A program made the position numbers and the translations under genes. DNA of 64,000 nucleotides. Source: Chloroflexota bacterium (GTDB lineage Bacteria > Chloroflexota > Chloroflexia > QHBQ01). Positions 23,290 through 26,460 of the stretch are shown in pieces. The notes below the pieces were generated by a model. The model did not search any database. It was not told the origin of the DNA and saw only the letters and a list, made by a program, of their open reading frames with translations. Every line of letters starts with the position of its first letter. Position 1 is the first letter of the stretch. Location of the stretch: positions 1 to 64,000 of the forward strand of contig JAYUUN010000105.1 of assembly GCA_043754535.1 (NCBI GenBank). The letters are read 5' to 3'.

Positions 23290-23525
23290 CTCAGTTCTAC
23301 CTTTCCTGCGTGTCCAGCATAACCTGCCTGGTTGCTACGTTACCCCCACATCATACTTGAGGGAGGTAAACGTGTCATTAGCGCAGCGTAAAATGCTTGT
23401 AAAACAGCAGGGTAGAGTGGAGCGGGGATAGAGAAAGGATTACTGGTTAGGGGACAGGCGGCAAAGGCGCAATGCTGCGCCCCCTTGCGGTTTTTGGCTA
23501 CCCCGCCAGTTGCCGCCCCCACTGG

Positions 23526-25005
23526 CTAGTAGGCGGCCACCAGGCTAGTGCTGGGAGGGGCAACTTCGGTGGTCAGTTCGTCCATCAAGCTGTTTAGCTG
23601 GCTAGCTGTGCCTGCCAGTTGCTCGCTGAGGATAGCGGTCTGGCTGGAGAGGTCGGATACCCTTTCCATTGCAGAGACGATCAGGCGGGTAGCCTTGCCT
23701 TGCTGCTCGGTCGAACTAACGATCAGGTAGCTCTCCCGCGTCACCTCGTCCACCTGACGAGCCAGTTCGCTAATCCTTTGCTCGGTAGTGCTGCTAGATT
23801 GCTGGCTCTGGTGTACCGAGGTGACGGCCTGGGTTGCGTCACGCAGCATAACCTGCACAGTACCTTGCATTGCGGCTACCAGCTCGCTGATCTGGGCGAC
23901 AGCCGTGTTGACCTTGCTTGCCAGCTTACCCACCTCACTTGCGACGACGGCGAAGCGTTTGCCCACCGCCCCTGCCCCCGCCGCCTCGATGGTGGCATTG
24001 AGGCTAAGGAGGTGCGTTTCGTCGGCGATCTCGGTGATCAAGGCCAGCACGTGTCTGACCTGCGCGACGCGGCTCTCAACCTGGCGGGCAGCGGACTGCA
24101 TCTGTTCACCAGCGAGAGCAGCGCGATTGAGTTGCTCACGGTCGCTAGCAAGGCTGCGGCTGGAGTCCTCGGCCTGGCGGGTGGTCTGTTCGCTACTATC
24201 GCGCACCCGCCTAGCCGAGTTGGCGATTTGCTCAGCGGTGGCAGAGAGTTCTGCCACCTGCGCTCTTACCTCTTGGAGCGAACTGGCCGCCCCTCGTGCT
24301 GCCCCCCGCTGCTGGCTGCTGCTCATCAGGCCATCGGCCATGCCGCCAGCTCGCTGCTTCGCCAGTTGCTCTCGCTCCACCCCAGCTTCGATGGTCAGCA
24401 AGGCTTGCTGGGCGCGGGCAGCATTCTGCTGGGCAGTACGCGCTGTTTGCTGCTGGGCATTAGCAAACAGGGTGAGTAGCACAGCAATGATCAAGTTGGC
24501 AGCAAGGATCGTAATCACATCACCAAGGTTCTGCCCCGCAGCAGGTCCAAAGTAGATAGCTATCAGGTAGGCTACGGCGGCGAATCCAGCTACCGGTGGG
24601 ATCGCCCGCCCCCCGATCAGCACTCCTGCCAGGGCGATGCTCAGGGTACAGCCAAAGACGCTGGTGCTGGAGGGGTATTGGGAGATCGAGATACTCGCCA
24701 TCAGGATCGGGGCAATTGCGCTAAGACACTTTGCAACTACCATCAGCCGTTGTTGCTCGCCGCTATCCGCGCAGGATCGGGGCAATTGCGCTAAGATACT
24801 TTGCAACATTAAGCTGGAAGCGGGCGGCAACGATGATCGCCAGCCCAATGCCGAGTGCCATTATCTCAGCAATGATAGAAAGCTGGCTGCCATCAGAGAA
24901 GTCTCGCCACAGGCTGTAAATGCCGACCCCAGCAGTAGCCGCGCCCATCAAATATAGTACCCAGCGAGTATTCCGTTCGCTACTGTCAACTTCTTGCATT
25001 GCCAT
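23526..25005 (-). pseudogene. Methyl-accepting chemotaxis-like protein frameshifted by a 70-bp insertion
   Basis: MCP hairpin LLSLNATIEAAGAG...FAVVASEV. The N-terminal part (start ATG 25005) and the C-terminal part share a duplicated VAK(Y/C)LSAIAPIL; removing 70 bp gives one ORF of 469 aa. Confidence 0.8.
24702..24807. repeat. 36-bp direct repeat pair flanking a 34-bp unique insert
   Basis: CAGGATCGGGGCAATTGCGCTAAGA(C/T)ACTTTGCAAC at 24702-24737 and 24772-24807, one mismatch. Confidence 0.95.
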
Positions 25006-25323
25006 AACTTCCCCTCTTGTTGCCTCGGATGCCACCGCCCGCTCTATCCGCCGGTTAGCCCTTCATGGGCAAGAGTGAGTAGGTGGCGTTGCTATCCTGG
25101 TTCTACTGCTGTCCGCGTTAATCATTATAGCACAGATGGGAGCTTCGATCAACATGAGCATAGCAGCCGCTGATGCTTGCTAACCTCACCAGAACTTTAC
25201 CAAACGCCCTACTTGCAGACTGGCAAGCAGCCCCTGCAACAACGCTGCTGGCACGCTGCGTGCTTGTTGATGCTGGCCTGCTCTGCCGTAAGAGAGTGAG
25301 CAACAAAGACAGGGGGTAGAAGA

Positions 25324-26460
25324 TTGGCTTCGGCTGAAAGATCGTCGTTCAACAGCTTCTTTATGGCTGGGTTTGAGTGTTCCACTCATGTTCTGCGCGA
25401 CGGGCGGCGGCTAGACCTCGTGGCCGCGACTGACCACCAGCGTTTCGCCGCCGCAGACTACGCGCGCATCCGCGAACGAGGGCTGCTGACCGCCCGCGAG
25501 GGCATTCGCTGGCACCTGATCGAGCTGTCGCCCTACCAGTATGATTGGAGCAGCGTGCTGCCAATCTTGCGGGCGGCCCGTGCCAATGGGGTGCAGGTAA
25601 TCTGGGACATCATCCATTTCGGCTGGCCGCCCGACCTGAACATCTTCAGCCCTGAGTTCGTGCGCCGCTACGTTGCGCTTGCCCGCGCCTTCGCCCAACT
25701 GCTGGTTGCTGAAGGGGAGATGGTGCCGTTCATCGCCCCAGTCAACGAAATCTCCTTCTCCGCTTGGGCCGGGGCGAGTGTCGCTTACATCAACCCCTTC
25801 GTTGGCGGTCGTGGCGACGAGTTGAAGGAGCAACTGGTGCGCTGCGTGATCGCGGGCATCGAGTCGATCCGCGAGGTTGCCCCCGCCGCCCGCTTCGTCC
25901 ACCCCGACCCGACAATCAATGTCGTCCCCAATCCACGCCGCAAGGGGCAGCAGGGGGCGGCACGTAGCGCAACGCAGGCGATGTTCGAGGGGTGGGACAT
26001 GATCGCAGGGCGCAAGGCTCCGCACCTGGGTGGGCGGCCCGACTACCTGGATGTCATTGGCATCAACTTCTACCCGCACAACCAGCGGCTACTTGACCCC
26101 CCGACCACGATCCGCCGCGGCCACCCGCTGTTCCGCAACTTTCGCCATATCCTGGCCGAAGTCCACAACCGCTACCACCGCCCGATCATCGTCTCCGAGA
26201 CGGGGGCCGACGGCGACGAGCGGGCGGATTGGCTGCGCTACGTAGGCCGCGAGGTGCGCTTGGCCCAGTTGGCAGGGGCAACAGTGGCAGGGGTCTGCCT
26301 CTATCCGATCCTCAACTTCCCCTGGTGGGACGACGACCAGCATCTCTACAATGCGCTGTGGGATTATGCCGATGAGCAGGGAGAGCGCGAGATTTACGCG
26401 CCGCTGGCGGCAGAGTTGGCCGAGCAGCAGAGCTTGTTTGCCCAGCCAGCGGCGGTGTAG
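25324..26460 (+). CDS. Beta-glucosidase-like glycoside hydrolase (clan A TIM barrel)
   Basis: FMAGFECS, PVNEIS (acid/base), IIVSETG (nucleophile), DVIGINFYPHNQ. Confidence 0.8.
   Translation: MASAERSSFNSFFMAGFECSTHVLRDGRRLDLVAATDHQRFAAADYARIRERGLLTAREGIRWHLIELSPYQYDWSSVLPILRAARANGVQVIWDIIHFGWPPDLNIFSPEFVRRYVALARAFAQLLVAEGEMVPFIAPVNEISFSAWAGASVAYINPFVGGRGDELKEQLVRCVIAGIESIREVAPAARFVHPDPTINVVPNPRRKGQQGAARSATQAMFEGWDMIAGRKAPHLGGRPDYLDVIGINFYPHNQRLLDPPTTIRRGHPLFRNFRHILAEVHNRYHRPIIVSETGADGDERADWLRYVGREVRLAQLAGATVAGVCLYPILNFPWWDDDQHLYNALWDYADEQGEREIYAPLAAELAEQQSLFAQPAAV

Follow-up and report, generated by a model that had tools for sequence, protein, structure and literature searches.

Probable off-target integration of a CRISPR spacer into a chemoreceptor gene of a Chloroflexota bacterium

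Repeat and Insert Within the Chemoreceptor Gene

The analyzed stretch of DNA (the window, 64,000 nucleotides) belongs to a genome, designated here G000, that was metagenome-assembled from environmental DNA and is 89% complete. The minus strand of the window carries a chemoreceptor gene in which two copies of a direct repeat enclose a short insert. The following features were distinguished at the locus:

24763..25005, minus strand: chemoreceptor 5' fragment, starting with the ATG at 25005 and running for 80 aa to a stop within the insert
24771..24807, minus strand: duplication, first copy in the gene direction, 37 bp, starting with GTTGCA as does the leader-side end of the host CRISPR repeats
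24738..24770, minus strand: insert (spacer), 33 nt, unique in the genome, absent from the sister species G001, matched by separate contigs in 4/4 runs
24701..24737, minus strand: duplication, second copy, in G000 with two differences from the first (24701 and 24727)
23526..24743, minus strand: chemoreceptor 3' part with the PF00015 domain, 405 aa open from an ATG within the insert

The repeat finder, applied to positions 23500-26200, detected one long direct repeat, which in the assembly measures 36 nt (24702-24737 / 24772-24807; 97% identity, with a mismatch at 24727). The copies are 70 nt apart, the gap between them is 34 nt, and the net gain is +70 bp. An earlier first-pass annotation had described a 36-bp duplication with one mismatch around a 34-bp unique insert; this arrangement is indeed found in the G000 assembly, but its sizes had to be corrected. 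Position 24701 is T in the G000 assembly, whereas G001, a genome of another species of the genus, and the public sequencing runs X5, X6, and X9 have G there; because of this, the duplication is better read as 37 bp (24701-24737 / 24771-24807) and the insert as 33 nt (24738-24770), i.e., 37/33/37. No 28/30 matches at distances of 65–85 were obtained in three hexamer-shuffled copies of the genome, so the repeat pair is not a product of chance. The repeat finder revealed no terminal repeats at the insert within the same interval. No match to the insert was obtained elsewhere in the genome (3.87 Mb) with as many as 8 mismatches allowed; it thus has no local template, the presence of which would have counted against the first-pass reading.

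Effect on the Chemoreceptor Gene

Scripted removal of the 70 bp gave an open reading frame of 469 aa on the minus strand, in agreement with the earlier claim that the insertion shifts the frame of the gene and that its deletion restores it. In the 3' part, the MCP signalling domain was recognized (PF00015; E 2.6e-25; 89.7 bits at a cut-off of 34.6). The native frame stops within the insert, at 24763-24765, after 80 aa, and an ATG at 24741-24743, also within the insert, lies in the downstream frame. Judging from the reading frames, the receptor is probably disabled; the best outcome would be a product that lacks the first two predicted membrane helices (helices were read by eye). Inactivation of the gene, which the first-pass annotation had stated outright, is likely rather than certain, since the in-frame ATG of the spacer could restart translation.

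The pN/pS ratio of the downstream part between G000 and G001 was 0.13, similar to the values of the neighboring genes (0.06–0.24), which indicates that selection acted on the gene during most of the divergence of the two genomes. Within the species, all 5/5 substitutions in the downstream part change the amino acid, vs. 27/106 between the species (Fisher p = 0.0016); the numbers are small, the count stands without a matched control gene, and the change at 24727 was deduced from contig counts. This difference points to a likely relaxation of selection on the disrupted gene. MCP-like sequences are located on at least seven other contigs of G000, and these genes may buffer the loss of the receptor. 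A run of Gln codons in the chemoreceptor, at position 24307 of the window, is one codon shorter in G000 than in X5, X6, X9, and G001.

Occurrence of the Insertion in Public Runs and the Empty Allele

Ten public runs contain at least half of the words of the region; four of them (X1, X5, X6, and X9), originating from four studies, were compared on the basis of Logan contigs rather than raw reads. Run X1 may be the source sample of the assembly, while X5, X6, and X9 are independent of the window assembly and differ from it at several bases. The insertion was present in all four. In X1 and X5, a single contig spans the whole insertion; in X6 and X9, the two copies are merged in a single 37-nt node with approximately twice the depth of the flanks, accompanied by a spacer node, which means that the copies are identical in these two runs. 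The junctions, on whose reality the first-pass reading depended, are therefore present in assemblies from four studies, as contigs and not as raw reads. Neither the focal empty allele nor a joint skipping the insert occurred in the contigs of the four runs, and contigs drop rare variants.

An empty allele among orthologs was found in the sister species, as the first-pass annotation had anticipated. The G001 genome, 93% identical to G000 over 1.41 Mb of aligned sequence, contains one copy of the repeated unit without the insert, and its chemoreceptor ORF is intact at 484 aa. From this sequence comparison, the insertion is the derived state, and G001 keeps the empty, intact gene.

CRISPR-Cas System of the Host

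One Cas1 was found in the G000 assembly; it is encoded on contig C62 and was identified as Cas1d. The type I-D operon of this contig comprises cas6, cas5d, cas7d, cas10d, cas3', cas4, and cas1d, and is followed by a Cas2-like ORF (read by eye) and then by a CRISPR array. Type III-B and III-A genes are located on other contigs. Nine arrays with 77 spacers of 33–43 nt were found in G000; the repeat length is 37 nt in all of them, and the leader-side start of the repeats is GTTGCA or ATTGCA. The genome thus holds the Cas1, a Cas2 candidate, and the arrays of matching size that the first-pass annotation had proposed looking for. The sum of repeat and spacer in the arrays is 70–80 bp, a range that includes the total focal insert of 70 bp. 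When the array spacers were compared with G000 and with 1.96 Mb of G001, 0/77 matched, so the GTN PAM is not readable from the host's own arrays. Genome G001 has two full Cas1 genes, the second of which is different, and also a 36-nt repeat family. Spacers in the ATTGCATCC-family arrays of G000 (C112:8430-8781 and C27:5319-5432) are 40–43 nt long, vs. 33–40 nt in the other arrays of this genome with one detected Cas1.

Source of the Insert and Its Orientation

Separate contigs in X1, X5, X6, and X9 match positions 24738-24771 at 31–33/34 bases (1–3 differences), while the chance expectation of such matches is approximately 1e-4 per 2.4-Gb run. The matching contigs run on into unrelated DNA that is not CRISPR repeat, and the flanks on both sides are the same in X1 and X5. 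Contig depths of the matching element and the host in the four runs were 877 vs. 62, 5 vs. 26, 3+3 vs. 24, and 2 vs. 14–17. These depths suggest that the element is not part of the host chromosome. The ratio shifts approximately 100-fold between runs, depth not being copy number, and this change hints that the element is mobile.

On the minus strand, the triplet before the 33-nt match is GTC, and at the opposite end the sequence adjoins GTTGCA in the focal gene. Cas4 of type I-D systems is reported to select a GTN PAM, and in Synechocystis interference is licensed by GTC (PMC5896167). By chance, GTN would be found at about 1 flank in 17, and the PAM rests on one site; if the 36/34 cut of the G000 assembly is used, the triplet becomes AGT, not GTC. 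For Cas4-Cas1-Cas2, it has been described that the prespacer's non-PAM end is placed at the leader-repeat junction and its PAM end at the repeat's far end (10.1101/2022.05.30.494039). The focal polarity, observed at one site, fits this rule, with the non-PAM end at GTTGCA and the PAM end 37 bp away. The first-pass annotation had noted that the duplicated unit ends in TTGCAAC as many repeats do; the likeness to a repeat end persists, but it is better read on the minus strand as GTTGCA, the leader-side start, because only that orientation sets the GTN PAM beside the protospacer.

A protospacer with a PAM, which the first-pass annotation had suggested seeking in the genome and in phage and plasmid databases, was therefore represented by a match with a type I-D PAM in four runs, but by none in the genome or those databases. 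A search for the source element gave no match in IMG/VR (three scans) or GTDB (one scan), and the best E value of phage and plasmid BLAST with the insert was 0.3 or worse. Among 40 genomes of the order, including the unpublished G007 and G012, the insert was present (3 mismatches or fewer) in G000 only; a cas1 match was obtained in 10 of the 40 and none in the other 30. A scan of JGI metagenomes returned 23 loci; they are chance matches, since none has the insert between the flanks.

Resemblance of the Target to CRISPR Repeats

The duplicated unit, read on the minus strand, is identical to the I-D repeat beside cas1 at 17/37 bases, the best of 18 comparisons. In the gene direction its fold has an energy of −2.5 kcal/mol, vs. 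−7 to −16 for 8/9 array repeats, and it does not end in ATTGAAAC, the Cas6 3' handle of the host repeats. Leader motifs within 200 nt were found at 0/11 of the sites described in the next section, the focal one included, vs. 5–6/9 arrays. Since the leader, hairpin, and 3' handle in the gene direction are all lacking, a working guide is unlikely, and the focal unit is probably inert, yielding no guide RNA. Hence, of the earlier term “natural neo-array,” the part concerning spacer integration can be kept, but “neo-array” overstates the case for one spacer with none of the marks of a functional array (leader motifs, or hairpin with 3' handle). The marks of off-target integration that were found are a pre-existing target, duplication of repeat length, a non-local insert of spacer length, Cas1-Cas2 genes, and a target resembling the leader-repeat junction, although at roughly half of the sites this resemblance is weak.

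Further Scars in the Genome and in the Sister Species

A scan for near-perfect repeats 40–160 bp apart yielded 385 pairs, of which 30 were left after the removal of arrays and low-complexity repeats. Twelve of these 30 isolated repeats had units of 36–41 bp and inserts of 34–41 bp, and 11, with the focal site among them, were retained as scars. The candidate C22:9461 (38/34, 3 mismatches) was dropped, as it is an in-frame repeat of a Thr/Ala-rich protein. Total inserts of the 11 scars are 70–79 bp, vs. 70–80 bp for an array repeat together with its spacer, and the inserts are mutually unrelated. Shuffled genomes contained no such scars. A Cas1-free control had 0 scars vs. 0.7 expected, but at 0.24 Mb it is too small to use.

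The likeness of the scar ends to the first 6 nt of the repeat, scored over the 11 sites, was reached in 7/5000 random draws; it is clear at only 3/11 scars, and 5/11 units score below zero. For the 3' end of the repeat, 0/5000 draws reached the score, a test that is not independent of the 5' one because the repeat ends are near-inverted. An ‘RTNG’ start motif is found at 8/11 scars; it was picked after the data had been seen and is not counted as evidence. Genome G001 has a clean empty allele at 4/11 sites, while it gave no clean test at the other 7/11: one, the fifth site, lacks the insert together with some further bases, two are too diverged, and four are without an orthologous site. Two scars of its own were found in 1.96 Mb of G001, L106:13331-13437 (36/35) and L168:1095-1207 (37/39), and both positions are empty in G000.

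A source match was obtained for only 2/11 inserts, the focal one and that of C90a (C90:1829-1948; L016:1330-1449), a scar with a 41-bp duplication that is present in X1, X5, X7, and X10. The C90a insert matches a host efflux-adaptor gene at C48:97729 (32/34) next to GTC, and the GTC is kept in the insert; C90a is possibly a mis-processed event, i.e., an integration without removal of the PAM. The neighboring scar C90b (C90:2708-2819; L016:2209-2320) is polymorphic in the species: the 73 bp are missing from contigs of X1 and X7, whereas X5 covers the insert. Both C90a and C90b are located in a multi-copy non-coding region.

With regard to gene effects, the scars of the focal chemoreceptor and of a DUF218 gene cause a frameshift (2/11), a third leaves the frame of its gene open, at two others a start codon is duplicated, and six overlap no convincing ORF; this distribution is expected if only tolerable events survive. 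The in-frame scar of 78 bp, C117:4434-4548, lies in a gluconate-2-dehydrogenase/GMC oxidoreductase fusion gene, the ORF of which stays open and gains 26 aa. At C71:24902-25010 and C57:7588-7698, the start codon and the sequence preceding it were duplicated; these genes are whole, and their upstream region is pushed back by 72–73 bp. As for location, the scar C46:3559-3671 is upstream of the type III-A cas10, and C43:1095-1201 is approximately 570 bp beyond a small array.

Mechanism and Alternative Explanations

Off-target integration of a spacer by the type I-D Cas4-Cas1-Cas2 machinery very probably gave rise to the focal unit, as far as DNA sequences allow this to be judged. Spacer integration of this kind had been proposed in the first-pass annotation, and the proposal gained support from the length of the duplication, the empty allele, the foreign match with its adjacent GTC, the type I-D genes, and the recurrence of similar scars, all of which are observations. 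In such an event, a piece of DNA from a co-occurring element would have been chosen at a GTC PAM and then trimmed. Its non-PAM end would have been joined at the GTTGCA site, mimicking the leader-repeat junction (first attack), and its PAM end 37 bp, or one repeat length, away on the other strand (second attack). Gap filling would have duplicated the target, and the insertion would later have drifted to high frequency in the species.

An explanation independent of Cas proteins is repair of a staggered break, or a template switch, in which a short piece of foreign DNA was taken up and the flank became duplicated. Capture of DNA is possible both in end-joining and in template switching; moreover, C90a has an odd 41-bp duplication with GTC shared at the junction, and a clear likeness to the repeat is missing at most scar sites. 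However, repair would not confine 11 events to 70–79 bp among 30 isolated repeats scanned over 40–160 bp, nor would it yield a GTN PAM together with a repeat-like end in the expected orientation, and the focal insert has no local template. This origin appears improbable to us. The actor could also have been another integrase, namely a casposase-like enzyme or a second Cas1, either type III-linked or RT-fused, that the assembly lacks, given that G001 possesses a second, different Cas1 and that G000 is incomplete. The type III-A and III-B genes of G000, the 36-nt repeat family of G001, and the fact that some scars measure 36 bp agree with this, whereas the finding of Cas1d as the only Cas1 of G000, the 37-nt repeats in all of its arrays, and the fit of the GTC PAM to type I-D Cas4 make a different enzyme a quite improbable candidate.

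Transposons typically insert with a duplication of the target on either side, and the unit could in principle be the footprint of an excised transposon or other mobile element, with a remnant of 33–34 bp between long target duplications. The 11 inserts are mutually unrelated, however, and the focal insert is without terminal repeats and has its match inside another contig, with unrelated DNA to either side, which makes such a footprint hardly credible. An artefact of assembly is comparably far-fetched: the genome was assembled from environmental DNA and its support comes from Logan contigs, not raw reads, but the unit was found in independent assemblies of four studies, with strain-specific substitutions inside both copies.

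Comparison With Known Systems

Off-target “neo-CRISPR” integration was described for the type I-E system of E. coli (Nivala, Shipman and Church, 2018, PMC5832444; via 10.1101/148544, PMC6607411, PMC7054753, PMC9456107). According to the citing papers, those events were obtained in a laboratory E. coli that overproduced Cas1-Cas2 and was supplied with oligonucleotides of spacer size, and they are reported to give no immunity (PMC6607411, citing Nivala et al.). A 2018 preprint mentions circumstantial evidence of off-target integration in two other species and describes the natural frequency as unclear (10.1101/148544). The focal unit resembles the E. coli events in that a spacer is found at a non-CRISPR chromosomal site with a target duplication of repeat length. 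It differs from them in the wild lineage, the Cas4-containing type I-D system, the occurrence of the event in populations of four studies, the empty allele of a sister species, and the presence, for the focal site, of a natural protospacer candidate that has a PAM.

Adaptation by the type I-D system of Synechocystis is reported to involve a GTN PAM selected by Cas4, spacers of variable length around 35 nt, and low-level integration without a leader (PMC5896167, PMC6607411). The PAM and the spacer length are shared with the focal site; unlike in those experiments, where the true repeat was the target, the focal target is coding sequence with 17/37 identity to the repeat and no leader motif. In its repeat-spacer-repeat shape, the CRISPR-like size of its parts, and the absence of nearby cas genes, the unit is also similar to orphan or mini CRISPR arrays. 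In contrast to these, its “repeat” consists of host coding sequence that is unique, occurs once in G001, and is unrelated to the host repeat families except at its start, with neither hairpin nor 3' handle. Our literature search, beyond whose reach subscription papers and supplements lay, revealed no genome-level survey of natural off-target integrations.

The focal site is very probably a natural case of the known off-target integration, and an unusually complete one, because the protospacer, PAM, polarity, and empty allele line up. We tentatively suggest that type I-D adaptation might act in this lineage as a standing, PAM-programmed mutagen, in which Cas4-Cas1-Cas2 would write trimmed, oriented spacers into ordinary genes at approximately one surviving scar per seven array spacers (11 vs. 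77), some of them fixed and some segregating. The scars might then constitute a second, genome-wide record of infection that outlasts array turnover, and a spacer could re-split a gene by means of a stop and a restart codon. The ten further scars, one of which is polymorphic, make it possible to measure, in a wild population, both the cost of CRISPR adaptation in mutations and the minimal target of a Cas4-type integrase. Such scars are prone to mis-annotation as frameshifts, pseudogenes, or orphan arrays.

A separate observation concerns contig C48, where two tandem, near-identical tRNA-like units of 69 nt are located at 87063-87259 and are conserved in G001.
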